The notes beneath the pieces were generated by a model that had not been told where the DNA came from, searched no databases, and worked only from the letters and a program-made list of their open reading frames with translations. A DNA stretch of 64,000 nucleotides from a virus, in the IMG/VR virus record IMGVR_UViG_3300045996_003734, positions 32,001 through 96,000 of that record. One strand, 5' to 3'. Shown here piece after piece: positions 115 to 63,500 of the stretch. Within the stretch, counting starts at the first letter, position 1, and each line of letters opens with the position of its first letter. The position numbers and the translations under genes were made by a program.

Positions 115-118
115 GACG

Positions 119-1738: not shown

Positions 1739-1950
1739 CAGACGCCGCTTCCCGGCACCTTGCCGCCGCCCAGATCGGGGCGACGGTAGGCCTGTTTGGA
1801 CGCCGCCATCACGGTCGCCTTCTCGACTGCGGATGCCGGGTCGCGGTGGCTGAGCAGCGCGTTGATGAGCGCCTCCAGCGCGGACTCGCCTACCCTTTTC
1901 GCGAGCTCCACGGTCGCAAGCTCGAGCGGCTCCGGAAGCTTCACTTGCAC
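1738..1950 (-). CDS. Small hypothetical protein
   Basis: GAGGAG RBS before GTG; coupled to neighbours. Confidence 0.5.
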   Translation of the reverse strand: MQVKLPEPLELATVELAKRVGESALEALINALLSHRDPASAVEKATVMAASKQAYRRPDLGGGKVPGSGV

Positions 1951-10503: not shown

Positions 10504-11630
10504 ATCCCCCGACCGCAGCAGGTCAACGTGGTGGTGTGGGAACGGTCAGCGGAGCCGGCTTGCTTGCACTGGTACACGAGGTAGGCGCCGTTCGCCCCTC
10601 CCGCGATGTCCACGGACACTGCTGCGACGGTGTCGATGCCGTACGCGACGCGCTGCGAGCCGGTCCAGTAACTCAGCCCGTCGGTCTCGAGCACCCACGA
10701 GTCCGAGGCGAGCCGGCGCTTCATGAGCTCCCTTCGCGCTCTCGCCACGGCCTGCGACTGCGTGACGATCGACTCGTCGATGACGATGGCCGTGCGGTCG
10801 AGCACGGGATCCACGCCCGCCAGCACCGGGTCGGAGGCCATGAACTTGATGCGGGCCTTCTGCTGGTCTCGCCCGCCGCCCACGCCGAAAACCCACAGCT
10901 GGGCCGGCACATCCTCGAAGTCCTCGGTCTTCGTCGCCGCGAGGAGGTTGTTGGTGCGCCCGTCAATGCCCCGGTGGGCGGTCATGAAGTAGCTCGCGCT
11001 CTGCTCGTCGTTCGGTGCGCCGATGACGATCCGACCGTCCGGCGCGTCCCACATCATGAGGTGAAAGCGCGAGAGGTGCCGCTCGGCGAACGACCACACG
11101 CTCTCCGGAGGATGCGGCCGCGCCTCTTCTTCCTTCATGGCCGCGAGGTCGAGCGTCGCCGTCCCACCCTTCCCCTTGCCCGTCACGAGGTCGCGCGCCA
11201 GGTCCGTGGCGAAGATGAAGTCGTCGCGCGTGAGGCCCATGCGCGCGAAAGCCGCGAGCACTACCGCCTCGAGTGTGGTGTTGCTCACGCCGATCTTGGA
11301 GTCCACCGCCGTGAACATCGCGTCCGCCAGCTTGGTGCGCACGATGACCTGAACGGTGCCGCCGGCGTCGGCCGAAACAGCCAGGTTCCGCGTGAGCAGC
11401 CGTCCCGTTATCCGCGGCGTGTCGTTCACGCTGATCGCGAATTGCCCGCCGATCGCGAGCGCTTCGCGGATCGCCGACCAGGTCCCGTCGTCGCCGAGCT
11501 CGAAGCGCGCCGCGCTGGGTCCAGTGAGGTCCGTCAGGATCTCGTACTGCGTGGCGCGGTCGACGACGATGCTGAAGCCGCCGCCGCGCACGCTCTCGAT
11601 GAGCACCGTATCTCGGAGGCGTCTGGCCAT
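10491..11630 (-). CDS. Baseplate hub protein (Mu gp44/gpP-like)
   Basis: PPESVWSFAERH...MMWDAPDGRIVI, ARARRE motifs. Confidence 0.85.
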   Translation of the reverse strand: MARRLRDTVLIESVRGGGFSIVVDRATQYEILTDLTGPSAARFELGDDGTWSAIREALAIGGQFAISVNDTPRITGRLLTRNLAVSADAGGTVQVIVRTKLADAMFTAVDSKIGVSNTTLEAVVLAAFARMGLTRDDFIFATDLARDLVTGKGKGGTATLDLAAMKEEEARPHPPESVWSFAERHLSRFHLMMWDAPDGRIVIGAPNDEQSASYFMTAHRGIDGRTNNLLAATKTEDFEDVPAQLWVFGVGGGRDQQKARIKFMASDPVLAGVDPVLDRTAIVIDESIVTQSQAVARARRELMKRRLASDSWVLETDGLSYWTGSQRVAYGIDTVAAVSVDIAGGANGAYLVYQCKQAGSADRSHTTTLTCCGRGIWAL

Positions 11631-31270: not shown

Positions 31271-31308
31271 GGGCTCGGTATGCGAGCCGGGGGCCGCTCT
31301 GACCCTCG

Positions 31309-32856
31309 CTAGTAGCCGCCGGTCGCGACGCCCTTCCGCGCCCCCCGCGCCGGCACCTTGGGCTTGCTCGCCGGCTGCTTGTCCGCGAAGTCCCAGTTGT
31401 GCACGGTCGAGTCCACCTGGTCGTCCTCGGCGCCGTCCACGCCCGTAAACCGCTCGTGCTCCTTGAGGTACGGGCCGATCCACTTGCCCTCATCCCAGCA
31501 CTCGAGTTCGCGTAGCAGTTTCTGCAACGCCACCGAGTCCAGGGTGGGGTCGTGGTCGAGCGGGACCTGGAAGCGCCCTTGCCCCCAAGCGGCAGCGGCG
31601 GCTTGCGCGGCTGAGAACTTGTCGACGGTGCGCGGCACTTCCACGAGCCGGAGCTTCGGATTCAGGCGGCGGAGGTTCTGTGCGACGCTCTGCCCCTGCC
31701 CGCCCTGGGTCTCGATGACGATGGGCACGCCCGGCCAGCTCGCCTGCAGCACCGCCAGCACGCGCACGACGTCCGGCGTCTCGAGCTGCATGCGGTAGCA
31801 GCGCAGCACCTGGCCGTAGAGCATGCCGGTCAGCACCACGCCCTCGGGGCTTTCCCAGGGCGCTCGCCAGTAGCAGCAGATGGTGATGGCTGTGTGGTCG
31901 GCGCTCGTCTTGGCGGTGCCGGCGGCGTCCACGGCGATGACGATTTGCCGGCCCTGCCGGATGGCCTGCCCCATGTAGCGGCGCGGCTCGCCGAAGACCG
32001 AGCCCCCCTTGGGCCGCGGCCGCTGCATGTACTGCGACCACCAGTTGTACTCCCCGACGACAGCGCGGATTTGAAGCAGCGCCTTCAGGTCGTAGCGCGC
32101 CTCCCAGAGCGGCTTGCCGTGCTCGTCGATGGCCGGCAGCGAGACGAACTCGAACGCCGGCATGTTCTCCGGGTCCTCCTCGCAGCGCTTCCGGATGCGC
32201 GCGAGCAGGTCGTCGTCGTTCCACCTCTGATGAAAGACGATGACGGATGCGCCCGGCTCGCGACGGGTGAACTGGTCGCCGATGAAGCTCTGCCAGACGG
32301 CTTCGCGCACCGTCTCGCTCTCGGCCTCCGCGCGGTTCTTAAAGGCGTCGTCGTTGAGCAGGAGGTCGAGGCCCTTGGAAACCAGGCCGCCGTCGCGCCC
32401 CACAGCGACGAACCCCCCGCCGCCCGCCGTCTGCCAGTGCCGCACGCTCGCGCTCGGGTCCCACTTCTTGCCGGGGCCGGAGCGCTGGAAGTCCACGCCC
32501 GCGTCGACCGCGCGCTGCCGCGCGATGCGGCTCTGGTCGTCCGCTACGTCCTGGCTGTAGGTCGAGTAGACGACGCGCTTGGAGGGCTTGTACTTGAGAA
32601 ACCGCGCGGCCCCGTGGAAGACGATCTCGGACTTGCCGTGCCGCGGCGGCGCCTCCACCCCGGCGTAAACCTCCTCGCCCGCTTGGATGCGGTCGAAGAG
32701 GTCACACATGCGCGAGAGCGCGATGGGCGATGCGTAGCGCGGCGAAGCCCACGGGATGAACTCGAGCAGCTCCGTGCGGCCGCGAATCTCTTGGGTCCGG
32801 CGCCGCGCCAGCGCCCGCTGGTACGCCTCACTTTTTTGGTGCTGCTGGAGGTCCAA
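31309..32856 (-). CDS. terL: Terminase large subunit
   Basis: APPRHGKS Walker A, LLLNDD Walker B, HQRW, IAVD, DDQVDS. Confidence 0.95.
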   Translation of the reverse strand: MDLQQHQKSEAYQRALARRRTQEIRGRTELLEFIPWASPRYASPIALSRMCDLFDRIQAGEEVYAGVEAPPRHGKSEIVFHGAARFLKYKPSKRVVYSTYSQDVADDQSRIARQRAVDAGVDFQRSGPGKKWDPSASVRHWQTAGGGGFVAVGRDGGLVSKGLDLLLNDDAFKNRAEAESETVREAVWQSFIGDQFTRREPGASVIVFHQRWNDDDLLARIRKRCEEDPENMPAFEFVSLPAIDEHGKPLWEARYDLKALLQIRAVVGEYNWWSQYMQRPRPKGGSVFGEPRRYMGQAIRQGRQIVIAVDAAGTAKTSADHTAITICCYWRAPWESPEGVVLTGMLYGQVLRCYRMQLETPDVVRVLAVLQASWPGVPIVIETQGGQGQSVAQNLRRLNPKLRLVEVPRTVDKFSAAQAAAAAWGQGRFQVPLDHDPTLDSVALQKLLRELECWDEGKWIGPYLKEHERFTGVDGAEDDQVDSTVHNWDFADKQPASKPKVPARGARKGVATGGY

Positions 32857-33442
32857 ACCGCTCGGGCCTCTGACCCGTATCTCCGTAGGCTATGACCTCT
32901 TCCTCGGTCCAACCCTCGAAGGGGTCCGGTGCCTTGACCACGATGTTTTGGCGGAGCTCGCCCATGTGCTCGAGCAGCGTGCGCGCCGCCTGCACGCGGT
33001 CGCTCTCGTTCTCCTGGAGCACCTGGAGCAGTCGGAGCCTCGCAATGCTCACCAGCTTCTCCCGCTGCCCGGTGGTGTAGTCCACCAGCCTCGAGGCCTC
33101 GGCCGAGTAGTGCTGGACGGTCTTGACGCTCATCATCCACGCCGGCGAGCTCCACCGCTTCGCTAGCACCTTCGCCATGCTGGCCCGCCACTCTCCGGAG
33201 GCCATCAGCTGCGCGATTTCGAAGATGCGACCGCGCTTGATCTCTTGGGGCGTGAGCACCGGGGCGTTGGGGTCGGTCGGGATGTCCGCGGGCGTGAGAG
33301 GCGGCAAGTCGTCGGGGTCCTGCTCCTGCTCGCGCTCTGCCTTGGCGGCCTTGCGCTTCGACTTCTTCGCAGCCTTGCGCTTGGACGATGGAGCACGAGA
33401 TCCATTCGGCGCCGTATCTGAGGGTCCAGCCGTCACGCCCAA
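32828..33442 (-). CDS. Terminase small subunit (putative)
   Basis: Directly upstream of terL; helical; WTEEEV tail. Confidence 0.6.
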   Translation of the reverse strand: MGVTAGPSDTAPNGSRAPSSKRKAAKKSKRKAAKAEREQEQDPDDLPPLTPADIPTDPNAPVLTPQEIKRGRIFEIAQLMASGEWRASMAKVLAKRWSSPAWMMSVKTVQHYSAEASRLVDYTTGQREKLVSIARLRLLQVLQENESDRVQAARTLLEHMGELRQNIVVKAPDPFEGWTEEEVIAYGDTGQRPERFGPPAAPKK

Positions 33443-33489: not shown

Positions 33490-33906
33490 ATGATCCGAGC
33501 GATTTGTACAATCTTGGTACTTCTTACAGTCGCCTGCAGCTCTGACGACGACGCGCAAGCGTGCGCCCTCGAGCATCGGGACGGCACGTACCTGCTTAAG
33601 ATGACCGAGCGCTCTGGAAACTGCGGCGCCGTCCCCGACTCGGTCACCCGCCAGAATCCCACGCTCAACTCGATCGGTAACGGTTGCGCCCTCGATGCCG
33701 ACGACGACCTGAGCGCCGACAAATGTTCTCTCTCTCGTTCGGCCACTTGCCCCACCGAGGACGGCGGCACAATTAGCTTGGTGGGGGTCGTCAAGGAGCA
33801 GGATGGCGGAGCGAAGCTTACCGGTCTGCTCACCGTGACCTTGCGCGATGACGCCGGCAGCACGCTCTGCATGGGCACCTACGACGCCACGTACACGCGG
33901 CAGTAG
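33490..33906 (+). CDS. Moron lipoprotein (Cys-containing beta domain)
   Basis: LVLLTVA-C lipobox; opposite strand to the operon. Confidence 0.8.
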   Translation: MIRAICTILVLLTVACSSDDDAQACALEHRDGTYLLKMTERSGNCGAVPDSVTRQNPTLNSIGNGCALDADDDLSADKCSLSRSATCPTEDGGTISLVGVVKEQDGGAKLTGLLTVTLRDDAGSTLCMGTYDATYTRQ

Positions 33907-33953
33907 CGACCTCCCGCGCGCGTCGCGCGCGTGACCTGGGGGGCATTGGGTGT

Positions 33954-34247
33954 TCAACCGACGCTCCGTCTCCGGTAGTCGTTCTGGGGCTTGCAGAGGT
34001 GAAACAGCGTGCAGTGTGGGCATTTGTAGGGCGTGACCTTGTTCCGGCCCTGGCCGCGCATGACGCGGGCGGCGTGCTTCGCGTTGGCCCGGGTCGAGTA
34101 CGTGCGCTTGTCGGTGCAGGCGCGGGCCTCGAAGCTGGAGACGCCGCGGGCTTGCATGTCGAGCCGGCGTTGAGCCGCGCGCGCCGTGGGGAGCTGAGCC
34201 ACTAGCGGGTACCCGCTAGTGGCGGTTCGAAGCCGCATGCGGGGCAA
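33954..34247 (-). CDS. Small Zn-ribbon protein
   Basis: C..KRTY...YKCPHCTLFHL; true start may be downstream. Confidence 0.65.
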   Translation of the reverse strand: MPRMRLRTATSGYPLVAQLPTARAAQRRLDMQARGVSSFEARACTDKRTYSTRANAKHAARVMRGQGRNKVTPYKCPHCTLFHLCKPQNDYRRRSVG

Positions 34248-34474
34248 CGGGGGTTGCCCTTGAAGTCGTGGCTTCGTGTGCCGTCAGCGCAGCGTGGCCA
34301 CACTCCGAACGCCAGGTAGCGGTCCCTGTCGGCGAATCGCCTCAGGAGCCCCTGCATGAGCAACCCGCGAAGCGAGCCCGGCTCCGACATGGCGAACCGC
34401 GGCGGCACCTGAACAACCGGCGAGAGAAAGATGGCGCGCGCTTTCTGCCGGAAGCGGCGCAGCTTGGAGCCCAT
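34202..34474 (-). CDS. Hypothetical protein
   Basis: Coupled ORF; C..H..CxxC. Confidence 0.5.
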   Translation of the reverse strand: MGSKLRRFRQKARAIFLSPVVQVPPRFAMSEPGSLRGLLMQGLLRRFADRDRYLAFGVWPRCADGTRSHDFKGNPRCPACGFEPPLAGTR

Positions 34475-35202
34475 CAGGCCGTCGCCCCCAGCTCCAGTTG
34501 CTTCTCGTCAGCCCGTAGCGCGCGCGCCTCGATGATTTCGCCGGTGTCGAGCCGGGTGACCTCGACCACCCCGAGCTTGTAGTTGGTCTTCTGCTCACAC
34601 TCGACGGCGCGCTCTTCGATGGCTTGGCCGGAGGCGACCACCAGCCGGATGAACTCCTTTTGGCATTCCGCGATTTGCGCGCGCTTTTCGCGCATCAGGT
34701 TCTTGAGCTCCGTCTCGAGCCGCTCGCGCTCGAGCAGCTTGCCGGCGGCGGCTTGCGCGGCCTTGTGGGACTGCTCGGGCGTGAGGGCGCAGGGCAGCGT
34801 GCGTTCGATTCGGATCTTCTTGATGGCTTGCTTGGTCACGGCGTCGCTCCTCGCCCAGCAAAGGGCCTCGTAGGTCAGCAGCCCGGCGTCCTCAGCAGCC
34901 GCCAGGGTTTGAATGGTGAAGTTGCGGCTCCAGCCGAGGCGCTTCGAGGCGATGGCCAAGAGCTCGTCGGGGGAGCTGCACTCGATGACGGCGGCGAGCT
35001 GCGAGGCGCGGGGGGCCCAGCAGGGGTCCGCGCAGGCCTCCCTGCCCTTCGTCGGTGCCCGAGGCTCGGTCGTGAAGTCCTCGTCCGGAGCGTGGTGCCG
35101 GAGCCAGTGCAGCGTCGACCGCAGGTCGTCCTCGGTGGCTTCCGGGAACTGGCGGCGTAGCGAGCCGAACAGGTAGGCCTGGCTCTTCTTGCGCTTCGCC
35201 AC
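34474..35202 (-). CDS. Hypothetical phage protein; probable internal start near 34838 (coiled-coil domain)
   Basis: GGAGG-GTG and AGGAG-GTG starts within ORF 34474-35598. Confidence 0.55.
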   Translation of the reverse strand: MAKRKKSQAYLFGSLRRQFPEATEDDLRSTLHWLRHHAPDEDFTTEPRAPTKGREACADPCWAPRASQLAAVIECSSPDELLAIASKRLGWSRNFTIQTLAAAEDAGLLTYEALCWARSDAVTKQAIKKIRIERTLPCALTPEQSHKAAQAAAGKLLERERLETELKNLMREKRAQIAECQKEFIRLVVASGQAIEERAVECEQKTNYKLGVVEVTRLDTGEIIEARALRADEKQLELGATA

Positions 35203-35273
35203 CTCGCGGATGGTCCCGCCGATGTTTCGAGCCGCCTTGGTGCAGACGTCGAGCGCGAAGTCGCGGAGAGCCC

Positions 35274-35591
35274 TCAGCGGAGCCTCCGCAGGGCGGTCCG
35301 GAGTGAGCTGAGGTTGAAGTCGGAGCGCCCCCCGTTCGAGCCGTCCAGGATGTCGAGGGCGAGCTGCTGAGCCTCCGGGCCATGCTTCCCGTCCAGCGCC
35401 GCGTCGGCGAGGTCGAGCAGCTCCTGTCGCTCCTTGCGGAGCTTCTCCCGCTCGACGAGCTCTTGCTCGCGCTGGATGGCGGCTTGGCGCTCCGGGCTCA
35501 GCGTGGCACCCATCGCGCGCTCGACGTGGGCAAGCGCTTCGGCGTCGTAGCCGGCGCGCTTCATTGCTTCCGCGTTTCGATTCAGGTTCAA
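35274..35591 (-). CDS. Hypothetical protein after the replication initiator
   Basis: TTGA overlap. Confidence 0.55.
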   Translation of the reverse strand: MNLNRNAEAMKRAGYDAEALAHVERAMGATLSPERQAAIQREQELVEREKLRKERQELLDLADAALDGKHGPEAQQLALDILDGSNGGRSDFNLSSLRTALRRLR

Positions 35592-36718
35592 GATTCACCT
35601 ACAGCGGCTAGGGTTGGCAGGACGGCACCGAGCAGCGCGGGGCCGCTCTTGGGGCCGCCCGAACGGTTGGGGTCGGGCTTCAGGCCGCTCTTGGCGCGGG
35701 CAATGCGCTCGAGCTGGTGCGGGGAAAGTTGGGTCTCGCGGGCGCCGGCCTGCTCGCGCCGAATGACCTCCACGGACAGCGCGCCCAGGCTCCGAGGCTT
35801 GCCTCCGTCCGCGCGCCACCACGGCGACTTGGTCACCCCGCGCACGGCGGTCAGCAGCTCGTCGGGCTCGAAGCCGGCCGCGAGCAGCGCCACGACGGCT
35901 CGCACCCCGGAGTCCTTGGCGTACGGCAGCAAGCGCGCCGAGCCGCGCATCCCGTTCGCTTCGTGCACGGCCTGCGCAACCGCTTGGACCTCCGGCCAGG
36001 TCTCCGGCGTGAGCCACTCGGCCATATGCCGGTTCCGTTCGGTGTACGCGGCTCGAGCGGCGATCGGCATGCGCATCGCCTCGGCCGGGTTTCGCGGCGT
36101 CTCGCCGACGAATGGCTGATCGGCAACCTCGACCGGTGCCGCCGGCGGTGGTGCTTCTTCGCGCGGTCGCGCGATCTCCGGCACGGCTGGCTTTGTACGG
36201 CTAGGCACAGCTGAGCTGGAGTGACCAACCGTGACCGGCTGTGACCGGTCGTGACGTTCGGTCACGGGCAGTGACTCGGCGTCACGAATCGTGACGGGTT
36301 GTGACGAGGTCTCCAGGACCGTGGCCACGACGGCCACCAGCTCGGCCGGCACGCCGGGCATCTCGGCCGCGCGGAGGGCTGCAGCGCGACGAGCGCGACT
36401 CTCGCGCTGGCGCTGCGCGTCGCTCTGCTTCGCCTCCTGCGCCCGAATGAAGTTCGGGACGAAGAGGACGCCGTCCGTCACCGCGACCACCTTGCGCTCG
36501 AGCAGCTTCGCCATGCCCGTGCGCGCGTGCTCGAGCGGGAGGTCGGCGAGAGCGGCTAACGCCTCGGCCGGCTCGAGGCCTTCGAGGTCCAGGACGCCGG
36601 CGCGGTCGACCTCCAAAAGCAGGGCGTGGAGGCACATGCGGCCGTCCCAGCCGAGCAGCTTCGTGGTGACGGTCTTGCGCGTGTAGACGCGAACGTAGCG
36701 TTCGTCTTCGAAGTTCAA
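35588..36718 (-). CDS. Replication initiator (lambda O/DnaD-like wHTH)
   Basis: FVPNFIRAQE...DAQRQRESRAR; VT.R/SQPVT repeats; C-terminal SPWW domain. Confidence 0.7.
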   Translation of the reverse strand: MNFEDERYVRVYTRKTVTTKLLGWDGRMCLHALLLEVDRAGVLDLEGLEPAEALAALADLPLEHARTGMAKLLERKVVAVTDGVLFVPNFIRAQEAKQSDAQRQRESRARRAAALRAAEMPGVPAELVAVVATVLETSSQPVTIRDAESLPVTERHDRSQPVTVGHSSSAVPSRTKPAVPEIARPREEAPPPAAPVEVADQPFVGETPRNPAEAMRMPIAARAAYTERNRHMAEWLTPETWPEVQAVAQAVHEANGMRGSARLLPYAKDSGVRAVVALLAAGFEPDELLTAVRGVTKSPWWRADGGKPRSLGALSVEVIRREQAGARETQLSPHQLERIARAKSGLKPDPNRSGGPKSGPALLGAVLPTLAAVGES

Positions 36719-37068
36719 ACCCAGGACTCCACGGCCGCGAAGGCCTCGACGACGTTGCGAACCACGGCGTAACGAACCCCGAGCCGCTCTGCCTTGGCCT
36801 GCCAAAGCTTCTGGCTAGGGAGCTGCCTGCCCTCTGCCGTCTTCACCTCGAGGCCGCCGAGGCGGCCGCCGGGGAGCACCAGGAGGATGTCCGGCGTGCC
36901 GGCAGGCGCCCCCTTGATCACGCGTCGCCGCGTGCGCACGGTGGCGCTGATGACCTGCGTCCCGCTGTTCGCCCGCCACGCCCAGATGCCTCGGAGGGCG
37001 AGCGCGCGGATGATGGCGGTGACGCGCGGGGACTCCTTGCCCCGTGCCCGGCGCCGATGCCTAAGCAC
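36715..37068 (-). CDS. VRR-NUC nuclease
   Basis: GTPDIL...GLEVK..GRQLPSQ. Confidence 0.88.
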   Translation of the reverse strand: MLRHRRRARGKESPRVTAIIRALALRGIWAWRANSGTQVISATVRTRRRVIKGAPAGTPDILLVLPGGRLGGLEVKTAEGRQLPSQKLWQAKAERLGVRYAVVRNVVEAFAAVESWV

Positions 37069-37585
37069 TGGTCACCTGCCGTCGGGCCGTCTTGGCCTGG
37101 TAGGTCGGGCGGCTCTCGAGCGCGGCGTGCAGGACCTCGCAGCTCTCGGCGCGCTTGTAGATGGTCAGGATGCTGATCTGCAGGGCGCGCGCGGCTCCCG
37201 TGATCGTCCCCTCAGCCAAGACGGCCGCGGCCATCTCCTCGCTGGTGATTCCCCGCGCCTTGTACTGGTACGTGGGCTTGTCGCACTCCGGGCAGGCGGC
37301 GACCGAGCGGAGGAAACCGTGTTCGCAGCGGGGCGTCAGGTAGAAGCGCTCCCGACCCACGAGTCGCCCCGACCGGTGCGACGGCTTCGACCGGTCGCGG
37401 TAGAAGTCCGACACGGACGTCTTGCACTCGATCAACGTGGACGTGCCGCGCGCCGTCCAGCCAAGCGCGTCCGGTGAGAGATTGGCGCAGAACGCCGAGC
37501 ACTCGGTGACGACCACGACGCTCTTGCGAGTGTGAGTGAGCCAGCGAGCGGCGCGCTGGACGAGCTCAGCGTGCGTCTCAGCCAT
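37061..37585 (-). CDS. PD-(D/E)XK nuclease-like (MmcB-like) protein with a C-terminal HTH
   Basis: PDALG...IECKTSVSDF.RD..K; GTITGAARAL. Confidence 0.65.
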   Translation of the reverse strand: MAETHAELVQRAARWLTHTRKSVVVVTECSAFCANLSPDALGWTARGTSTLIECKTSVSDFYRDRSKPSHRSGRLVGRERFYLTPRCEHGFLRSVAACPECDKPTYQYKARGITSEEMAAAVLAEGTITGAARALQISILTIYKRAESCEVLHAALESRPTYQAKTARRQVTSA

Positions 37586-37764
37586 GGGTCACCTGCTTGC
37601 GCGGACGACCCACGGGGCGCCCGGTGGGGACGTACGCTTGGCGCCTGAGGTCCCGCTCGCGCCGCTCCGTCTCCCGACCGACGAGGGTAACGCTGCCTAG
37701 CGGCTGCGTCGGCGCGGCCGGGCCGGTGCCGAGGCAGTCCAGGCAGTCGCAGCAGAGAGGGTGC

Positions 37765-37953
37765 TCAGCCACGGCCGGCCTCCTGCGCTTCCGCCCGCGC
37801 CTGCGCGGCCTTGCCCTTGGCGTACCGCTCCGCCTGGCACCCTTCGCACAGGCCGAGCAAGGCGTGGACGCCGTCGACCAGGTCCGTGCACTTCTTCGAG
37901 CAGCGCTCGCAGAGGTAGGTGACGGTGGGGCTCCGCTTACCGGCCACGGCCAC
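37765..37953 (-). CDS. Small Zn-finger protein
   Basis: CxxC...CxxC; GGAGG RBS. Confidence 0.5.
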   Translation of the reverse strand: MAVAGKRSPTVTYLCERCSKKCTDLVDGVHALLGLCEGCQAERYAKGKAAQARAEAQEAGRG

Positions 37954-38233
37954 CTCCGCTCGCGTGCGCGCGCCCGTGCTTCAACCCCTGTTCGTAGGCG
38001 AGCAGCTGCCCGGCCTCCGGCTCCCAACCGCAGGCGGTGCAGCGGTAGCGGTGGGACTGCTCGCCCGTCGGGACGAGTTCGTGCAGCAGGCACGCCTGGG
38101 TCCTGGCGTGCTGGGCCTTGATGGCCTCGAAGCGAGCCCTGGCCTCGTCGCGGGACATGCCCGTCAGCGCACCGACAATCGCCGCGCCGTCGTACGTGCC
38201 GTCTGGGTTTTGGAACCGGCGCGGGTCAGCCAC
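37937..38233 (-). CDS. Hypothetical protein
   Basis: C..H...YRCTACG; coupled. Confidence 0.6.
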   Translation of the reverse strand: MADPRRFQNPDGTYDGAAIVGALTGMSRDEARARFEAIKAQHARTQACLLHELVPTGEQSHRYRCTACGWEPEAGQLLAYEQGLKHGRAHASGGGRGR

Positions 38234-38447
38234 GGCCGCCCTCCCGCTCCAAGGCCTCGGCCACGTCCGCCATGGCCGCCAGGCGCTCGGCCCAGACGCG
38301 AGCGTTCGCCGGCGACAGGTCGAGCCCGGCGCCGTTGCTGAACTCGAGGATCACCTTGCCCGGCTCCGCCGACAGGTGGGCTGGCATTACGGACGGCCGA
38401 GCGGCCGCGCCTTGCCGATGGGCGGCCAGCTGAATGACCTTACCCAT
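38226..38447 (-). CDS. Hypothetical protein coupled to the integrase stop
   Basis: GGAGG RBS inside the int 3' end; 8-bp overlap. Confidence 0.6.
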   Translation of the reverse strand: MGKVIQLAAHRQGAAARPSVMPAHLSAEPGKVILEFSNGAGLDLSPANARVWAERLAAMADVAEALEREGGRG

Positions 38448-39981
38448 GGCGACGGGCCTCCTCCGCGATCTCCGCGACCGCCCCGTCCACGTCTCCGGCC
38501 AGGACCTTCTCGAGTGCGCGCGCTACCGCGAGGCCGGGCCGAAGTGGTAGGCTCGGGTCAACATCGGCCAACCGCTCCAGGCGGTGGACCCGGAGCAGGT
38601 TGTCGCGACGAGCCCCAAAAGGATCGTCTAACGAATCGTCTAGACCGCCCGCCGAGGCGACCGAGGGCCGACTCTCGCCCTCCGAATCAGCGCCAGAAAC
38701 GGCATTTGGGGACCCTGCGCCGCCGGCGGGAGAATTCGAATCCCTCCCTCTCCGCAGCAGTTCCTCCGGTGAAACCGCAGATTCACCGGAGGCGTTAGAC
38801 GATTCATAGACGAATCGCTGCAGGCTCTCCGGCAGAGGCGCGAACGGATCGCCGATGCTGGCGCCCAGCGCCTGGTGTCCGCGGCGGATGTAGATCTGCG
38901 TGGTCTTGAAGTCGGAGTGCCCAGCTCGCTCGCGAATCATGTTGTCCGTGTCTCCCCGCATGGCCATGTAGGTGATGCCCGTTGCTCGCAGGTCGTGGAA
39001 GCGCAGCGCGCGCACACCCTTGCGGTTCTTCTTGTGGAGCGCCGGCCGGTCCACGCCGGCCGTAAGTAGGTCCTCACGGAGCACGTCGTACGGTCGCTCG
39101 ACGATCTCGAACACCGACTCTCGACTGCGCCGCCGGTACATGGCCTCGAGCATGGGCCTTAGGAGCGGCTCGATGCTGAAGTGACGGGAGCGGCCTGTCT
39201 TCGTGTACTCGTGAAAGACTTGGGCCTTCGAGTCGAAGGACCGGTTCACGCGGACCATGCCGTGCGCTACGTCCACCCCGAGGCGCCAGAGCAGCGCGAG
39301 CACCTCACCCGGCCGGCAGCAGCAGTAGACGGCCACGGCGTAGAGGGCGCGCCGCTCTCGCGGCACCTCCGGGCACGCTAGCAGCTTCTGGAGCTCGACC
39401 GGGAAGAGCCACTGCAGCTCCACCTCGCCCGGCGGGTCCGGCGGCACTACGCCCTCGGCAGGGTTTCGGGACAGCAGACGGAGCTCGCGCTTCTTGGAGT
39501 GCGCCAGGTCGCGGAACATCTTGGAGGCCACGGCCCAGCAGTTCTGGGCGGTCTTGGCGCTGAACGTGACCTCGCCGTCCTGGGCCTTCTCGTCCAACCA
39601 CTGCACGAGGTCCCGGAGGTCGTCCGTCGTCACCTCGTCCACGTGCTTCTTGCCGATGATGGGGCTGATGTGGAGCCGGTACCGGTAGAGGTCCGAGCGC
39701 AGGGACTTCTTGCTCGAGCGCGACGGGATCCAGAGACGCTCGAAGTATTCGTCGCACGTCGGGCGCGTGCTGATAGGCGTCTTATCCTGCGGGGGCGACC
39801 AGACCTTGCCCTTAGCCGCCAGGCTCAGCTTGCGGGCAACCTCGCGCGCGTCGTCGTCCGACAACGCCGGATCGATCGGGATGTACGGCCGGACCGTCTT
39901 CCCCTCCGCGTTCTTGGCTGTGATGCGCGCGTACAGCGTGGTCGCGTTGACGCGCCAGATTGTGCCCTTGGTCTTGGTCAT
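38440..39981 (-). CDS. int: Tyrosine integrase containing its own att site
   Basis: R (CRPGE), K (TKTG), HDLR, GH and Y (TTQIY) catalytic set. Confidence 0.95.
   Translation of the reverse strand: MTKTKGTIWRVNATTLYARITAKNAEGKTVRPYIPIDPALSDDDAREVARKLSLAAKGKVWSPPQDKTPISTRPTCDEYFERLWIPSRSSKKSLRSDLYRYRLHISPIIGKKHVDEVTTDDLRDLVQWLDEKAQDGEVTFSAKTAQNCWAVASKMFRDLAHSKKRELRLLSRNPAEGVVPPDPPGEVELQWLFPVELQKLLACPEVPRERRALYAVAVYCCCRPGEVLALLWRLGVDVAHGMVRVNRSFDSKAQVFHEYTKTGRSRHFSIEPLLRPMLEAMYRRRSRESVFEIVERPYDVLREDLLTAGVDRPALHKKNRKGVRALRFHDLRATGITYMAMRGDTDNMIRERAGHSDFKTTQIYIRRGHQALGASIGDPFAPLPESLQRFVYESSNASGESAVSPEELLRRGRDSNSPAGGAGSPNAVSGADSEGESRPSVASAGGLDDSLDDPFGARRDNLLRVHRLERLADVDPSLPLRPGLAVARALEKVLAGDVDGAVAEIAEEARRHG
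38623..38814 (+). other. attP-type site: tRNA-Ser 3'-end core (38735-38755) with flanking arm-type repeats
   Basis: TTCGAATCCCTCCCTCTCCGC; ATCGTCTA x2 (38623, 38635) inverted relative to TAGACGA x2 (38796, 38807). Confidence 0.82.
38763..38792 (+). terminator. 11-bp hairpin just downstream of the tRNA 3' core
   Basis: CCTCCGGTGAA-8-TTCACCGGAGG; no U-tract. Confidence 0.55.
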
Positions 39982-40307
39982 CAGACCGCCTCCCGGAAGC
40001 CGCGGCGAAGGAGCGCCGCCTCGATGGGGTCGATGGTCGGAGCGGGCGGTGGCGCGGAAGCGGGCGCGACCCGCAGCACTGGCTCGACGCGAGCCTGCTC
40101 GATGTAGCGGTGCATGGCCGCGCGCTCCACGAGCACCCGGCCCGCGCGCTTGAACCCCGGCAGCGTGCCCTGGCGGACCAGCCGGCAGTGGGTCTGCTTG
40201 GGCAGCGGCGACGTGTCCTGGTCGTAGTACCGGGGCCCGTCATTCTGCTCGAGTCGGTCGGCGACCGCGTCGGCGAGCTGGTGGAGGAGGGCGCGGAGGT
40301 CGCTCAC
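39981..40307 (-). CDS. xis: Excisionase-like HTH protein
   Basis: RLVRQGTLPGFKRAGRVLV wing motif; coupled to int. Confidence 0.75.
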   Translation of the reverse strand: MSDLRALLHQLADAVADRLEQNDGPRYYDQDTSPLPKQTHCRLVRQGTLPGFKRAGRVLVERAAMHRYIEQARVEPVLRVAPASAPPPAPTIDPIEAALLRRGFREAV

Positions 40308-40525
40308 CCTTCGACCTCCATGTACTCGAACCCGCACCCAAGGCAGGTCACGTCGGTGATGCCGTCCCTGTAGCAGCGGCTTATCTGCACGTGCTCGCAG
40401 GTGACGAACGGGCCGCGCAGCCGGAACGCCTTACGCTTCGGCTTGGCCGCCAGTCCGAGCTGCGCGTCCAGACGCCGCTCCACCTCGGCGTGGTCGACGT
40501 AGTCCAACGGCATCGGTTGCATCAC
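40304..40525 (-). CDS. Small hypothetical protein
   Basis: CxH..CxxC; GTGA overlaps. Confidence 0.5.
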   Translation of the reverse strand: MMQPMPLDYVDHAEVERRLDAQLGLAAKPKRKAFRLRGPFVTCEHVQISRCYRDGITDVTCLGCGFEYMEVEG

Positions 40526-40674
40526 GAGGTGCTCTCCTGCTCTGCGCGCTTGAGCCGCTCCTCGGCCTCGCGCTGGTAGTTGCTCATCGCCTGGTCGAGG
40601 TGGATGCGGCCGCTCTTGGTCCAGTAGGCCCAGAGCTCCCGGCACACCGCGACGCGCTGCTCGTCGGTCAGCAT
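40522..40674 (-). CDS. 50-aa hypothetical protein (not in ORF track)
   Basis: MLTDEQRVAVCRELWAYW...; coupled. Confidence 0.5.
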   Translation of the reverse strand: MLTDEQRVAVCRELWAYWTKSGRIHLDQAMSNYQREAEERLKRAEQESTS

Positions 40675-40791
40675 TGCGGGTCCCCCGTTAGGAGCCAGGC
40701 GAGCACGCGCTTCGGCAGCTCTACCCGCTCGCGCTTGTTCTCGGGCCCGTCCCCGACGGTGAGCACGATCGCTGCGGGCCAGCCCGAGCCG

Positions 40792-41037
40792 TCAGCGCGC
40801 CGCACCTCGCGGATGCTTCGGGTCGACGTGTGCCCGAACGGGTTCGCGTCGTCGCAGACCCAGCCGTCCAGCTCGAACGGCCCGGCGCTCGGAGCGGCAG
40901 CCGTTGCAGACACGGGAACGACAGCCGGGGTTGGCGAAGTGGTAGTCCGTGAGCGGCCACCACTCGTCGCAGCGGTTGCAGCAACGCTCAATGATGCCGT
41001 CTTCGGCGGGTCGATCGGGGACGCGCTCCCAGAGCAT
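40792..41037 (-). CDS. Small Zn-finger protein
   Basis: GGAGG RBS; CNRC...CNGC. Confidence 0.5.
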   Translation of the reverse strand: MLWERVPDRPAEDGIIERCCNRCDEWWPLTDYHFANPGCRSRVCNGCRSERRAVRAGRLGLRRREPVRAHVDPKHPRGAAR

Positions 41038-41050
41038 GATCGCCTCCGCA

Positions 41051-41770
41051 CTAGGCCGCCCTCCGCGCCACGCCCTCGGCTGCCCCACCCCGAGCGGCAT
41101 CGTCCCAAGCCTGAACGCAATGACGCCGGAGGGCGTCAGATTCAGTGCAGGGGCGCAGCGGGGCAGGCTGCGGCGCGCAGCGGAATGCCACAGCATCGGG
41201 CAAAAAAAAGGGCGCCGCGCGGTCGATTCGAACGACCTCATTCCCCGCTTCACCGGCCGGCATGGCGGGGACCCGGCTCAACAGACCGGTGACCTTCCCA
41301 CAGGTCGAGCGCGCGTCTTGTGGTGCTAAGTGCGAGGTGGCCAGTTCCAGCAGCCTGGCTTCGGCGTCTCGCTGAAGGGAACGTCCGTGTTGAAGAACTG
41401 TCCCGTCGGGTTCAGGATGCAAAGGCCCACGCTGTCGTTGGGCCCGAAATTCACCTGCGTCACCACCGCCGCTCTCGGCGCCGGCAGGTACTCGCCGCCC
41501 GGCGTTCCGTAGCTCTGGTAGTGCACGATCCGTCCCACGCTCGGTTTCTGGTCCATTGGTTTCTCCGTTCAGCTCGAGCACGCACAGCGCCTCGAGAGCA
41601 GTCATGCGGGCGCGGCCGAGCTCGAGGTCACGCAGCGTCCGGACGCCGATGCCGAGCTCGTGGGCGGCGCGCTCCTGCGACCAGCCGCGGGCAACGCGGG
41701 CTCGACGGAGGCGACCGGCAGCCGCCCGCCTCGCCCCACCCCGCAGGGTGAACAGCTTTCCCTCAGACAT
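41051..41770 (-). CDS. XRE-family HTH regulator (domain ends near 41560; the frame stays open beyond)
   Basis: LRRARVARGWSQERAAHELGIGVRTLRDLELG. Confidence 0.65.
   Translation of the reverse strand: MSEGKLFTLRGGARRAAAGRLRRARVARGWSQERAAHELGIGVRTLRDLELGRARMTALEALCVLELNGETNGPETERGTDRALPELRNAGRRVPAGAESGGGDAGEFRAQRQRGPLHPEPDGTVLQHGRSLQRDAEARLLELATSHLAPQDARSTCGKVTGLLSRVPAMPAGEAGNEVVRIDRAAPFFLPDAVAFRCAPQPAPLRPCTESDALRRHCVQAWDDAARGGAAEGVARRAA
41210..41315 (-). ncRNA. tRNA-like cloverleaf, anticodon GUU, 35-nt variable region
   Basis: D stem GACC/GGUC, anticodon loop CUGUUGA, T arm GGUCG-UUCGAAU-CGACC, G73-CC, followed by T8. Confidence 0.7.
41326..41556 (-). CDS. Small conserved phage protein
   Basis: PSVGRIVHY...PRAAVVT...WNWPPR pattern; GGAG RBS. 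Confidence 0.8.
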   Translation of the reverse strand: MDQKPSVGRIVHYQSYGTPGGEYLPAPRAAVVTQVNFGPNDSVGLCILNPTGQFFNTDVPFSETPKPGCWNWPPRT

Positions 41771-42080
41771 GGTCACCTTGAAGCAAGCGCTCGCGGACGT
41801 GCTCGACCGCTGCCGCGAAGCGCTCGTCCTGGAGCCGAGCCCGAGCGGCGCGCAGCAGGGCGGTAGCCGCCCCGCCCGTCCGACCGAGGGCCACGGCCAC
41901 CTCGGCATCGCTCATGACGGTGTGGTCGTGGAGCAGCAGAGCGGCGACGTGGCGAGCGAAGCCGAGGCTCCGGGCGATGCGAGGGCCGCGGAGGTCGACG
42001 ACGGCGATCCCGAAGTGCTCAGCAGCCCGCTCGATGATGAGCGGAGCCGGGAGCAGACGGAGGGCTGGTGCGGCTCCCAT
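41763..42080 (-). CDS. DnaA C-terminal-like HTH protein
   Basis: AAEHFGI..DLRGPR...ARHVAALL...S..EVA.ALGR. Confidence 0.7.
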   Translation of the reverse strand: MGAAPALRLLPAPLIIERAAEHFGIAVVDLRGPRIARSLGFARHVAALLLHDHTVMSDAEVAVALGRTGGAATALLRAARARLQDERFAAAVEHVRERLLQGDHV

Positions 42081-42260
42081 TCAGCCCTCCCCGCGGTTGG
42101 AGAAGCCCTTGAAGACGGCCGGCTTCACCTCGACCAGCTCCCGGAGCGGCTGCTCGAGCACGCGAGCGCCTTGGGCCTTGGCCACCTGGGCCTCACGGGC
42201 GAACACCAGCGCGAAGCGGTGCTCTCCGGCTACCTCGGTTTCGGCGAGCCAGGACTGCAT
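42081..42260 (-). CDS. 59-aa hypothetical protein (not in ORF track)
   Basis: MQSWLAETEV...; abuts both neighbours. Confidence 0.45.
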   Translation of the reverse strand: MQSWLAETEVAGEHRFALVFAREAQVAKAQGARVLEQPLRELVEVKPAVFKGFSNRGEG

Positions 42261-42533
42261 TTAGGCCGCCTCTTTGCGGTCGCAGACCCGGAGGTAGCGG
42301 ATGAACTCCCGCCGCAAGCGCCCGCTCCGGAGGACGGCTCGGAGGTTCAGCGGGGCGGTGCCGGCCACCCAGGCCTGCATCGTTCGGAGGCTGACGCGGC
42401 ACCAGCGCGCGGCATCGGACTGCGACGCGCCCGCCTTGGCGATGGCGTAGCGCAGCGCATGCGCAGAATGCTGCGTAACCTGTTGCTCCGACCAGGTTAC
42501 CCCGATGTGCGGGATGACCGTACGCTTGGCCAT
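42261..42533 (-). CDS. HTH regulator (CII position)
   Basis: ASQSDAARWCRVSLRTMQAW. Confidence 0.7.
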   Translation of the reverse strand: MAKRTVIPHIGVTWSEQQVTQHSAHALRYAIAKAGASQSDAARWCRVSLRTMQAWVAGTAPLNLRAVLRSGRLRREFIRYLRVCDRKEAA

Positions 42534-42534
42534 G

Positions 42535-42774
42535 TTAGGCAGCCCCCTTGTCCGGCTCCCGCTCGGAAGCAGCCGGCTCACTCCACCACGCCGGATCGAT
42601 TGGAACCTCCGGATCGTCCTTCAGCTTTTGACTGTTCTCGGTCGTCGGCGCCGTGCCGCCGCGCGCGAGCCTCGACAGTCTCGGTTGAGAGATACCAGTG
42701 CGGCTCGCGAGCCGTTTCTGGACCCCTCGGGTTTGGAAGGCTTTTGCCAACGTTTGAGAGGCCCGCGAATGCAT
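42535..42774 (-). CDS. Cro-like HTH protein
   Basis: QKRLASRTGISQPRLSRLARG; divergent from the repressor. Confidence 0.8.
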   Translation of the reverse strand: MHSRASQTLAKAFQTRGVQKRLASRTGISQPRLSRLARGGTAPTTENSQKLKDDPEVPIDPAWWSEPAASEREPDKGAA

Positions 42775-42787
42775 CAGCGTCGCAAGT

Positions 42788-42817
42788 ATGCACTCGCGGA
42801 TATATCCGTCAACGCAA
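42788..42817. promoter_or_regulatory. Tandem operators (cro/cI side)
   Basis: ATGCA-CTCG-CGGAT and ATCCG-TCAA-CGCAA, 16-bp period. Confidence 0.65.
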
Positions 42818-43486
42818 AAACGGACTACTTGCGTGGAGGCCCCGGAATTTGGAGCATTCGGCGTGCCCGCTCACCCAGGCCCGTTGAAGGCCAAGCCACC
42901 GAAGACACGACCCGCGGGGTGGACCGATGGTCAGTGGCAGTTTCCCAAGCGTCTCGAGGCGCTTGGCGTCGAGTGTGGCTGGGACCCGGCGGAGGTGCAG
43001 CGAATCGCCCAGGTCTCGCAGGCCACCGTCTCGCGTTGGCTGGCATACAAGTCGAAGCAGCCAGATCCGCTTGCGGTGAAGCGATTGGAGATAGCTGCAA
43101 AACGGCCGCCAGGCTGGCTCTTGCGCGAGCCCGACGAGGGAACAACAGCTGCAGCGTCGGGCGTTTCCACGCAACTCGCGCTGCGGCTTGTCCGAGCAGG
43201 CCTGAGCAACGACTTGCTAACTCTCTCGGATGAGGAGCTAGGGGCAGTGGAACGGTTTCGACCTGAGTTGAGAAAGGCGATCTTGGGGATCGTCCACGTG
43301 TACGACGTGCCGCTTGAGCGCGCCGCCGCTTTGGCGGACATCGCCGTGGGCGCTGAGCCATCGATGGTGGGGCATCCGTCGGGAGACGCGCCTTTCTGGT
43401 TTGAGCGAATGGCTAGACGGGTGCCGCCGAGAAAGGAAAGCGGCAGCTTTCCGTCGTCGGGCTCGATAAAAATTCCGAAGCGATAA
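42788..43486 (+). CDS. CI-like XRE repressor (true start probably downstream of the operators)
   Basis: AEVQRIAQVSQATVSRWL HTH; divergent from cro. Confidence 0.78.
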   Translation: MHSRIYPSTQKRTTCVEAPEFGAFGVPAHPGPLKAKPPKTRPAGWTDGQWQFPKRLEALGVECGWDPAEVQRIAQVSQATVSRWLAYKSKQPDPLAVKRLEIAAKRPPGWLLREPDEGTTAAASGVSTQLALRLVRAGLSNDLLTLSDEELGAVERFRPELRKAILGIVHVYDVPLERAAALADIAVGAEPSMVGHPSGDAPFWFERMARRVPPRKESGSFPSSGSIKIPKR

Positions 43487-43536: not shown

Positions 43537-43566
43537 ATGCGCTTGCGCATTCATCCGCGAACGCAT
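43537..43566. promoter_or_regulatory. Tandem operators (early rightward operon)
   Basis: ATGCG-CTTG-CGCAT and ATCCG-CGAA-CGCAT, 16-bp period. Confidence 0.7.
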
Positions 43567-61915: not shown

Positions 61916-62376
61916 CGCCGCCCCGGGTTCTCTGACACCGACTCCGCCGCGATGCGGCCCACGCAGGCCCCCCGCTCTGCGCCGTCGCGGAGCTCGCGGC
62001 AGATGTCTAGCTTGCGGTCGAATTCGCTGCGCTGAATGACGGTCTGCGTGGGGGGCGGCGCCGGCGTCGTGATCCGCACCATGAAGCCAGCGAAGCCGCC
62101 GGAGCCCAGCATGCCCAAGAACACCTTGACTGTCGTGGACGCGGCGAAAGCCTTTGCTCTCTTCGCCAGCAGCTCGAACTCCGTGAGGCGCTGGTCGAGC
62201 GCCAAAAAGGACCCCTCGAGCTTGCCGAGGCGCTCGCCCAGCCGCTGCTCGACGGCGATCGCCACCTGCTCGGCTTGGTGGGCAGCCCGAACGGCGCGCT
62301 CGAACTCGTCCCCATGGTCCTCAGAAGGCATGGGGAGGCGTCGGCCTGGGATTCCGGGAGCGTTCGGTGGTGCCAT
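61912..62376 (-). CDS. Coiled-coil/TM protein of the lysis cluster
   Basis: Coiled coil, TM helix, Cys pair; homologous to 1-114. Confidence 0.7.
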   Translation of the reverse strand: MAPPNAPGIPGRRLPMPSEDHGDEFERAVRAAHQAEQVAIAVEQRLGERLGKLEGSFLALDQRLTEFELLAKRAKAFAASTTVKVFLGMLGSGGFAGFMVRITTPAPPPTQTVIQRSEFDRKLDICRELRDGAERGACVGRIAAESVSENPGRR

Positions 62377-62380
62377 GACG

Positions 62381-62647
62381 TCACTTCGCCACGGCAGCGA
62401 TGGCGCAAACGAAGCTCACGAGGGCGGCAGCTACGCCGATGAGCGCGGGCAGCCACCGCTCTCGGCGCATGCTGACGACCTCCGCCTTCAGTGTCTTGTG
62501 CTCCTCGAACATCCGGAGGCTGATGTCGTGCGAGCGCTCGGCGTAGACCTTCGTCTGTCGAGCTTCGTCCTCGGTGCGAGAGCACGACGCGAGTATCAGC
62601 TCGAGCGTGTCTTTCCGGTCGGTCGGCGTCTTGTCGTCATCGCTCAT
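62381..62647 (-). CDS. 88-aa coiled-coil/TM protein, copy 2
   Basis: Homologue of 119-385. Confidence 0.7.
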   Translation of the reverse strand: MSDDDKTPTDRKDTLELILASCSRTEDEARQTKVYAERSHDISLRMFEEHKTLKAEVVSMRRERWLPALIGVAAALVSFVCAIAAVAK

Positions 62648-63500
62648 TGGCGTACGGCTCCGATTCGGGGGCGAGCTCGCTGGGGTCGGTGTCGCTGGCG
62701 GCGTGCGAGGCGAGACGCGCGTGCTCACGCAGGTTCGCCCCCGCCATGCCGACGGCGTTCTGGATGCGCTCCCAGTGGCTGGCCTGGAGCTGCTCGAGCA
62801 AGTCCTCCAGCCCCTCGTCGCCGTCTTCTGGCGGCGGCGGAAGCGTGCTGTTCACGAGGTCCCGCGCCGTTGCGATGAGCGGCAGCTCGCCGAGCAGGCG
62901 GTTCTGGTCGAGGACAGGCGCCTGGCTGTCGTAGCCGCCCGCGCCGTCCGGGTCGTACGGGGCCACTCGGTGCTGCCAGATCGTTGCGGCCGCCCCGCCC
63001 GGCGTCGCGGGCTTCGAGGCGCCCGTGTAGTGAGCCACCCAGAGCGGACGGTCGAGCAGCCACGCGGGCTTGCCCAGCATCCCGAACTCGCGCTGGGTGA
63101 TGTACACCATGGCGTCGCCGTACTGCTCCACGAGATCGTCGAGGATGTGCTTCACGCCGTCCTGCCAAGCCGGCGAGACGTGGGCACCCGGCTTCGGGAG
63201 CGGGTCGGCCTCGACGTCCAGTGTGGGCACGATGTCGCCCGGGCCGATGTGCGCGGCGGCGAGCTGGTCACGAAAGACGGCCAGCTGATCTGCCGCGTCC
63301 TGGCTCGGTCTGAAGAAGTGATAGAGCCCCACCTTCAGCCCGGCGGACCGCGCTCGTCGCACGTGCTCGAGCGTGACGCGGTCCTTCATGAGCCCGTAGC
63401 TGCCGCGAATGATGGCGAAGCTCGACGTGAGCGCGAACGTCGCCCAGGGAAGCGACGCAGGGTTTTGATGGTGACTGACGTCGATTCCGTACTTCTTCAC
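62637..63500 (-). CDS. Endolysin, GH25 muramidase, copy 2
   Basis: Same motifs; 45 of 287 residues differ from copy 1 by manual count. Confidence 0.92.
   Translation of the reverse strand: MKKYGIDVSHHQNPASLPWATFALTSSFAIIRGSYGLMKDRVTLEHVRRARSAGLKVGLYHFFRPSQDAADQLAVFRDQLAAAHIGPGDIVPTLDVEADPLPKPGAHVSPAWQDGVKHILDDLVEQYGDAMVYITQREFGMLGKPAWLLDRPLWVAHYTGASKPATPGGAAATIWQHRVAPYDPDGAGGYDSQAPVLDQNRLLGELPLIATARDLVNSTLPPPPEDGDEGLEDLLEQLQASHWERIQNAVGMAGANLREHARLASHAASDTDPSELAPESEPYANER

Follow-up and report, generated by a model that had tools for sequence, protein, structure and literature searches.

The 64-kb stretch of virus DNA analysed here, referred to as the window, corresponds to bases 32001-96000 of the 109,166-bp record IMGVR_UViG_3300045996_003734 and contains a phage early operon whose tyrosine integrase gene (int) encloses the phage attachment site (attP). 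The reading preferred here, to which a probability of about one half is given, is that a temperate myxobacterial phage carries an integration module of the Mx8 type within its early lytic operon. The topological premise, namely that attP lies in int and that int lies in a run of co-directional genes, is sound. Since attP is inside int and int is inside a gap-free run, recombination at the att core parts the candidate promoter Pcro, cro, the helix-turn-helix (HTH) genes, xis and the 5' part of int (int') from the int tail, the 11 genes that follow it and what lies beyond. Provided that the phage integrates at this core, the splitting of the operon by integration is certain. The record itself, which has a G+C content of ~69%, is made of 1.75 tandem diverged copies of a genome unit of ~62.2 kb according to self-alignment, and the operon under study belongs to its second copy.

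The core of attP is the 21-mer TTCGAATCCCTCCCTCTCCGC, which is identical in 21 of 21 bp to the T-loop-to-discriminator 3' end of Polyangiaceae tRNA-Ser genes and runs antisense to int. An earlier reading of the window, made from its letters without database searches (the sequence-only reading), had put an att core at 38735 inside int, and this position proved to be the first base of the tRNA-Ser match. The 21-mer occurs at 12 places in all four Polyangiaceae-type genomes searched, four of these places being the 3' end of a tRNA-Ser(GCT or GGA) gene, and a reversed control gave 0 matches. The core is accompanied by arm repeats: TAGACGAWYC is present four times in the window against 0.13 expected, always at 115 bp or less from the core, and the resulting layout is two arm repeats, 40 bp, the 21-bp core, 92 bp and two inverted arm repeats. 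When its fold is searched against the PDB, the window Int comes closest to full-length lambda Int (1z1b, E 5.9e-9), an enzyme that binds arm sites, and in the window the arm repeats are candidate Int sites by sequence.

The int open reading frame (ORF) is intact and aligns over its full length to homologues, and residues R223, H329, R332 and Y364 are invariant in 13 aligned Int homologues. An AlphaFold (AF2) model of Int, based on 17 homologues and with a mean predicted local distance difference test (pLDDT) of 81, has three lambda-Int-like domains that are well predicted to residue 388, a linker at residues 391-454 that is predicted to be disordered (pLDDT <50) and a three-helix C-terminal tail at residues 454-512 (pLDDT 83-93). 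The entire attP coincides with Int codons 389-454, that is, with the predicted disordered linker of ~64 codons between the catalytic domain and the tail. The Int motifs ESS and DDS, which flank the linker, are translated arm repeats, and their conservation is probably a constraint on the DNA.

Among close relatives the attP cassette is inverted within the linker (window 38621-38816; L001/L085, L088 and P0002). The core is antisense to int in the window, with spacers of 40 and 92 bp, and sense in P0002 and L001/L088, with spacers of ~92 and 42 bp, while the arm repeats retain their orientation where the core is inverted. In P0002, which is 66% identical to the window Int, the core encodes FESLPLR.

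All genes called from 42774 to 33954 are on the minus strand according to a frame analysis of G+C at third codon positions (GC3), and their order is a Cro-type gene, four small genes (HTH), phrog_2293, a poorly resolved stretch, xis, int and 11 further genes. The sequence-only reading had described same-strand genes with mostly overlapping start and stop codons, and the inspection of start codons agrees with it, 18 of the 21 junctions evaluated having a gap of at most 1 nt or an overlap of 1-17 nt. These 18 include g5/g6, where the g5 frame is open beyond the g6 ATG, and g19/g20, where a CTG start in a CTGA overlap is assumed; the junctions g6/g7 and g7/g8 (40.7-41.3 kb) have gaps of 288 and 117 nt, and gene calls there are uncertain. 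Among the small early genes at 41558..42533 the junction gaps are +1, 0, 0 and -8 nt. From xis onward each start overlaps the preceding stop, the xis stop overlapping the int ATG by 1 nt and all 11 junctions downstream of int overlapping by 1-17 nt. The gene that starts at 38447, which had been proposed to take its ribosome-binding site (RBS) from inside int, does so: its ATG overlaps the int TAA in ATGGGTAA, with GGAGGAGG 12 nt upstream. Two stretches that had looked non-coding, 37586-37764 and 41557-41762, are small ORFs, and the predicted RNA fold of 41557-41762 is not better than that of shuffles (z -0.17).

Splitting of the operon at the core is what integration does in this integrase family. 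Among twelve related int loci scanned for tRNA genes, eight (L003, L006, L011, L012, L014, L020, L021 and L030) have a tRNA gene for Gly, Asp or Glu exactly at the end of Int similarity, so that int runs into the antisense tRNA; L001, L005 and L007 have no tRNA gene at the int end, and L002 has an intact, full-length int. In L001 and in a further locus, L093, int runs into host DNA. L001 carries xis and int' (70% identity over residues 5-405), followed by the tRNA-Ser core and by DNA homologous to stretches downstream of tRNA-Ser, and a 65%-identical xis homologue lies directly upstream of its int'. L096, which is from the same metagenome-assembled genome (MAG) as L001, presents in order the end of another element, the core, two GGACGATTG repeats and a detached int tail, which is 60% identical to Int residues 454-513. 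Past this tail are an overlapping sigma region 4 gene (11161..11556, Sigma70_r4 E 1.9e-7) and then a 368-amino-acid (aa) homologue of the 405-aa putative replication organiser of the window. In L112 both cores of a tRNA-Asp element, 16,046 bp apart, are on one contig and enclose the distal repeats and a series of co-directional ORFs. The contig of L006 did not yield the far end of its prophage, and the only tail-like match was on another contig. Replacement of the Int C-terminus on integration is thus seen in L001, L093, the eight antisense-tRNA loci and the tail of L096. The earlier claim that att cuts the operon between its promoter side and its replication side agrees with this geometry, and L001, L096 and L112 show the split.

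The order xis, int, small genes and replication-type gene on one strand is shared by the IMG/VR relative L105, copy 1 of the record and Mx8, and translation of the first gene behind int is coupled to the int stop in all of the window, copy 1, L096 and L112. As a separate observation, the Polyangiales MAG G002 (L087, L089-L095) holds eight copies of the tRNA-Ser core, just two of them in tRNA-Ser genes. One and the same end of a further element stands before several of these copies, a pattern suggestive of different islands stacked in arrays at tRNA-Ser genes.

On the promoter side, Pcro is the sole sigma-70-like match on either strand between 31000 and 45000. Under relaxed rules it is the one match on the minus strand between 33900 and 42900 (1 against 2.05 +/- 1.5 in shuffles), and no sigma-70-like site was found on that strand from 38735 to 33954, by scans that miss the late promoter too. 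These scans see the sigma-70 consensus alone, so that non-consensus or activator-dependent promoters escape them. Perfect ATGCAYTCGCGG half-sites of the candidate operator are present nowhere else, a one-mismatch copy lies at 43555-43566, and copies with two mismatches are at chance level (22 against 19.4 expected), so downstream of att no second half-site stands above chance. The divergent 232-aa ORF at 42788..43486 is likely a repressor, as suggested by its weak HTH_3 match and by the HTH_26 match (E 0.003) of its counterpart in copy 1; its coding signal is weak. Sigma-54 sites were considered and rejected: the consensus scan gave 43 matches against 66 expected, below chance, and TGGCAT-N-TGC near 41.18 kb is conserved but has the wrong spacing.

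By this geometry, integration into a tRNA-Ser gene would leave Pcro, cro, the HTH genes, xis and int' at one prophage end, where int' would keep the catalytic domain and then read into the antisense tRNA. The int tail, the 73-aa gene, the putative organiser and the late genes would come to the other prophage end, facing in from host DNA. On loss of repressor, Xis and Int' would excise the prophage, the operon would be rebuilt and the downstream early genes would be transcribed. That these genes have no promoter of their own, and so are transcribed only after excision has rebuilt the operon, is held at just under an even chance; it is based on the gap-free, translationally coupled layout and from negative promoter scans of low power.

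Features of the early region of the window (aa, amino acids; nt, nucleotides; positions are those of the window)
Feature	Position	Strand	Remarks
CI-like repressor candidate, divergent, 232 aa	42788..43486	+	weak HTH_3 E 0.006; start perhaps further downstream
Pcro candidate promoter	42812-42785	-	TTGACG-16 nt-CATACT, sigma-70-like; ends 11 nt upstream of cro ATG
Operator candidate palindrome	42763..42799	.	two ATGCAYTCGCGG half-sites 13 nt apart, across -10 and cro start
cro-like gene, 79 aa	42535..42774	-	HTH_3 E 1.2e-6, 28.8 bits vs cut-off 23
Small early gene	42261..42533	-	weak HTH_23
Small early gene	42081..42260	-	
Small early HTH gene	41763..42080	-	Bac_DnaA_C E 2.3e-7; weak sigma-factor (sigma region 4-like) matches
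Xre HTH gene	41558..41770	-	HTH_3 E 7e-8
phrog_2293 gene, 76 aa	41326..41556	-	PHROG E 8.8e-37; ~70% nt match to Mycobacterium/Gordonia phages
Poorly resolved stretch	40304..41325	-	short ORFs, conserved T8 run, T-arm-like hairpin ~41195-41240
xis/uoi-like gene, 108 aa	39981..40307	-	GTG start, GGAGG RBS; HTH_17 E 1.5e-4, below Pfam cut-off
Tyrosine integrase (int), 513 aa	38440..39981	-	PF00589 E 1.9e-11; phrog_1 E 8.9e-37
attP arm, int-proximal	38796..38816	+	two direct TAGACGAWTC repeats; Int codons 389-396
attP core	38735..38755	+	21-mer TTCGAATCCCTCCCTCTCCGC, antisense to int; Int codons 409-416 (RRGRDSNS)
attP arm, int-distal	38621..38642	-	two TAGACGATYC repeats, inverted vs other arm; Int codons 447-454 (DDS..DD)
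First gene after int, 73 aa	38226..38447	-	ATG overlaps int stop by 8 nt; RBS GGAGGAGG in int tail
Small gene	37937..38233	-	overlapping
Small gene	37765..37953	-	overlapping
Small gene	37578..37772	-	overlapping
phrog_631 gene	37061..37585	-	overlapping; precedes putative replication gene
VRR-NUC gene	36715..37068	-	overlapping; precedes putative replication gene
Putative replisome organiser/replication initiator	35588..36718	-	376-405 aa; 376 aa from start overlapping preceding stop
Gene	35274..35591	-	no family found
267-aa gene	34474..35277	-	no family found
Gene	34202..34474	-	no family found
Gene, last of gap-free run	33954..34202	-	no family found
GC-rich hairpin	~33910-33950	.	with convergent gene, marks end of early run
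Convergent gene, lipoprotein-like N-terminus by eye	33490..33906	+	GC3 phase fits plus frame; 90% identical in copy 1
Late block start: 204-aa gene and large terminase subunit	31309..33442	-	phrog_38 E 2.5e-59

The gene at 35588..36718 is the only candidate replication gene. The sequence-only reading took it for a replication initiator, which is supported as a lead only. In favour are ESM Atlas scores of 0.95-0.96 to clusters of PF09681 (replisome-organiser) and PF07261 (DnaB_2), and the domains of homologues, since among 23 sequences aligned with the protein four carry DnaT and two Phg_2220_C. The protein of the window matches no family: PF09681 reaches E 0.14 in Pfam, below threshold, and fold searches with a model of the 379-aa form (mean pLDDT 65) gave generic winged-helix matches only, with a best Foldseek E of 0.1 and VIA Z <=7.5. 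A role in replication is rated at about two in three. The gene at 34474..35277 was considered as a DnaC-like candidate and rejected, having neither a Walker motif by eye nor a family match.

Several points weigh against the gating of replication by excision. The replication role of 35588..36718 rests on language-model likeness, a sub-threshold Pfam match and the domains of homologues, the fold searches being non-specific, and among the genes of the window none was recognised as a helicase, primase or polymerase. The sequence-only reading had extended the cro operon into the late genes, and this was not borne out: the plus-strand gene at 33490..33906 and the GC-rich hairpin stand between 33954 and the terminase gene and cut the late genes from the early run, so that the late genes probably form a unit of their own. 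Upstream of the late block, which needs either a promoter or read-through, the scans gave no sigma-70-like promoter either, so the absence of scan matches proves little, and a promoter inside 38735-33954 could escape in the same way. Small early proteins with an HTH like that of sigma region 4 or DnaA_C, such as those of 41763..42080 in the window and 11161..11556 in L096, could act in trans on such promoters, with no need of excision. A scan for canonical hairpins followed by a T run gave no insulating terminator to shield the downstream genes from the core side; its three candidate sites between 31 and 45 kb are on the plus strand, and read-in from host DNA is possible. Among the sequencing runs searched, no RNA run contains the stretch. 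Finally, attP of the record is intact, so the integrated form of this phage has not been seen, and no attL or attR of the window phage was found in one soil DNA run with related contigs; a single joint at 38735 in that run was discarded as a repeat match, its 21-letter side being the core itself.

The strongest alternative is that the split of the operon is incidental. In it, the intragenic attP serves to alter the Int C-terminus (IntP to IntX), and the downstream genes are driven by internal or activator-dependent promoters or by read-in. This agrees with the blindness of the scans to non-consensus promoters, the late one included, and with the presence of several small HTH- or sigma-like early proteins, and the conserved three-helix tail (pLDDT 83-93) argues that its loss matters to Int itself. 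A review that treats Mx8 states that integration makes a new int 3' end and alters Int activity, and the available part of its text does not mention gating of replication (PMC6070905). Against it stands the compactness of the region: between the core and 33954 no non-coding space is left, each of the 11 junctions being an overlap, promoters would have only intragenic room, and neither a sigma-70-like site nor an operator copy is found there. The coupling of the first downstream gene to the int stop, which is retained in the window, copy 1, L096 and L112, also speaks against an incidental split. This alternative is quite possible, its chance falling somewhat short of even.

That the tRNA-like stretch at 38735 is a chance match or a relic, the phage integrating elsewhere or never, would suit a record seen in unintegrated form only and the lack of attL/attR in the one soil run, but it is very improbable given the 21/21 bp identity to tRNA-Ser ends with 0 control matches, the four flanking arm repeats against 0.13 expected, and relatives that end int exactly at such cores. 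Equally little weight can be given to an assembly artefact of a chimeric contig as the source of the gene order, which the tandem diverged copies (72-93% identity) and the many related variants in the soil run, with an int depth of 2-4 against 14-25 in the flanks, might suggest, since both copies, L105 and Mx8 share the gene order on one strand and the int ORF is intact and aligns over its full length to homologues.

The layout described here is not new, and the window is a distant further example of the known Mx8-type architecture. In Mx8, and likewise in Mx9, attP is located within int and integration gives int a new 3' end, as stated in the available part of the same review (PMC6070905). 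The GenBank annotation of Mx8 lists imm, uoi, int, a replication initiation protein, a DnaC-like gene, terminase and structural genes on one strand. The likeness extends to an HTH gene (uoi in Mx8, xis in the window) that overlaps the int start and to attP inside int, with the core in the window corresponding to a tRNA 3' end and arms on both sides within int. Mx8 Int also has, in its C-terminal third, a GLEP motif, which is the peptide encoded by antisense T-loops in copy 1 and relatives. The differences are considerable: the window Int is 33% identical to Mx8 Int over 123 of its 513 aa (E 4e-8), whereas copy-1 Int is 33% identical to it over 308 aa (E 1e-35), and besides Int one other protein matches. 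The genome unit is ~62 kb here, with a Mu-like portal and head genes, against 49.5 kb in Mx8. The target is tRNA-Ser in the window and tRNA-Asp in Mx8. Mx8 is not among the three records of the phage collection matched by int (tblastn, E 1e-5).

Other viruses in which integration alters a gene or its expression can be compared. In lambda, sib retroregulation results from integration moving a cis element across att, so that prophage and circular form differ in expression; the separation of sib affects only the stability of int mRNA, and O and P remain linked to pR in the prophage. The window phage would share with lambda the change of expression on att crossing and would differ in that its putative replication gene is parted from Pcro. 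In the mycobacteriophages BPs and Brujita, attP is inside the repressor gene, and integration yields a truncated protein that behaves differently, whereas in the window the core is in int and the CI-like ORF (42788..43486) is intact, 4 kb away. In viruses of the SSV fusellovirus type, int is interrupted on integration by an internal att, as described in the available text of PMC5861418. These are archaeal viruses with an integrase of another family and their gene is partitioned, unlike the window, where the catalytic part stays whole.

The closest parallel in regulation is Tn916, for which excision-gated expression across the att joint is already established. In the available account, its replication and transfer genes are expressed only after circularisation (PMC11658703, citing Celli and Trieu-Cuot 1998), Porf7 and its target genes being at opposite ends of the element and forming one unit across the att joint after excision (PMC11658703). 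Similarly, the Pcro candidate and the genes from 38447 to 33954 are co-directional and lie on opposite sides of att. Tn916 differs in being a conjugative element with an intergenic att joint, while att of the window phage is inside int, and in having, according to the same partial text, a proven insulating terminator and an antiterminator RNA, for which the scan of 31-45 kb found no counterpart; gating is proven there and proposed here. No description of a phage operon rebuilt by excision was found among the titles and abstract openings listed in a literature search, outside which the primary Mx8 papers lie, and this is not proof of absence from print.

The host of the phage is most likely a Polyangiaceae-type soil myxobacterium, because homologues of the window integrase derive from Polyangiaceae and Polyangiales MAGs. 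Searches of the phage collection with DNA and protein gave just a 230-bp actinobacteriophage match and three weak int matches, and no near relative. A soil DNA sequencing run with related contigs contains 0.40 of the words of the stretch.

In the self-alignment, record positions 1-46884 align with 62149-109166 in blocks at 72-93% identity, that is, with 7-28% DNA difference, and the repeat is also present within the window (1-1740 against 62263-64000). Since int and attP are intact in both copies, the record is not a tandem lysogen formed via these att sites; possible explanations are a heteroconcatemer and a chimera assembled from co-occurring strains. Between conserved flanks, the same slot of copy 1 (L080 8784-10730, against window 38226-40337) is occupied by an unrelated int cassette with a 463-aa Int, an HTH_17 xis (E 8e-17) and an ATGA-coupled 119-aa next gene, and a T-loop (GLEPRV) runs antisense within the C-terminal third of this Int. 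In the soil run the summed contig depth over int (38401-40200) is 2-4 against 14-25 in the flanks, which fits an exchangeable int cassette in a population of related phages.

Further features of the early operon emerge from comparison of the two copies. The Xre HTH frame from 41770 is open past the phrog_2293 gene (41556) to 41051 in each of them (window 41051-41908, minus strand; L080 11070-11903), which might reflect a frameshift fusion or gene overlap. Both copies also retain a T8-T9 run with conserved non-coding DNA behind it, which is unusual at 69% G+C. Copy 1 has a whole tRNA-Trp gene in its early operon (L080 11311-11384), where copy 2 has a mere T-arm-like hairpin, GGTCGTTCGAATCGACC. 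The 267-aa gene is 94% identical to that of copy 1 and lacks ATG, GTG and TTG where the homologous start would be (35274-35277), its start being likely the CTG of the CTGA overlap with the preceding stop. The convergent gene at 33490..33906 is possibly a lysogen-expressed moron. Farther downstream, 28760-31483 encodes a 907-aa right-handed beta-helix (tailspike-like) protein, in an odd place between the large terminase and a Mu-type portal. Beyond the switch there is a plus-strand operon with SbcCD-like, MazG, DUF968 and ParB-like genes, which would keep its promoter in the prophage.

At this locus the codons of a predicted disordered linker accommodate an entire attP, with core and arms, and close relatives carry it in both orientations and in several frames. 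This housing helps to explain the change of tRNA target by such integrases and is useful for the design of myxobacterial integration vectors. For the wider family, it is suggested only tentatively, with the balance leaning against it, that in Mx8-type myxophages integration breaks the early operon, so that the replication organiser, and perhaps by read-through the whole downstream lytic programme, is promoterless in the prophage and silent without any repressor, and excision by Xis and Int' is an obligatory checkpoint before replication. If true, this would be a phage counterpart of the Tn916 circuit, and silencing of replication genes in the lysogen would need no repressor. The order of excision and then replication would be set by DNA topology alone, opposite to the late-excision lifestyle behind lateral transduction, and replication in situ, hence lateral transduction, would be precluded. 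As the layout is the same, gating can be tested in the tractable system of Mx8 and Myxococcus xanthus.

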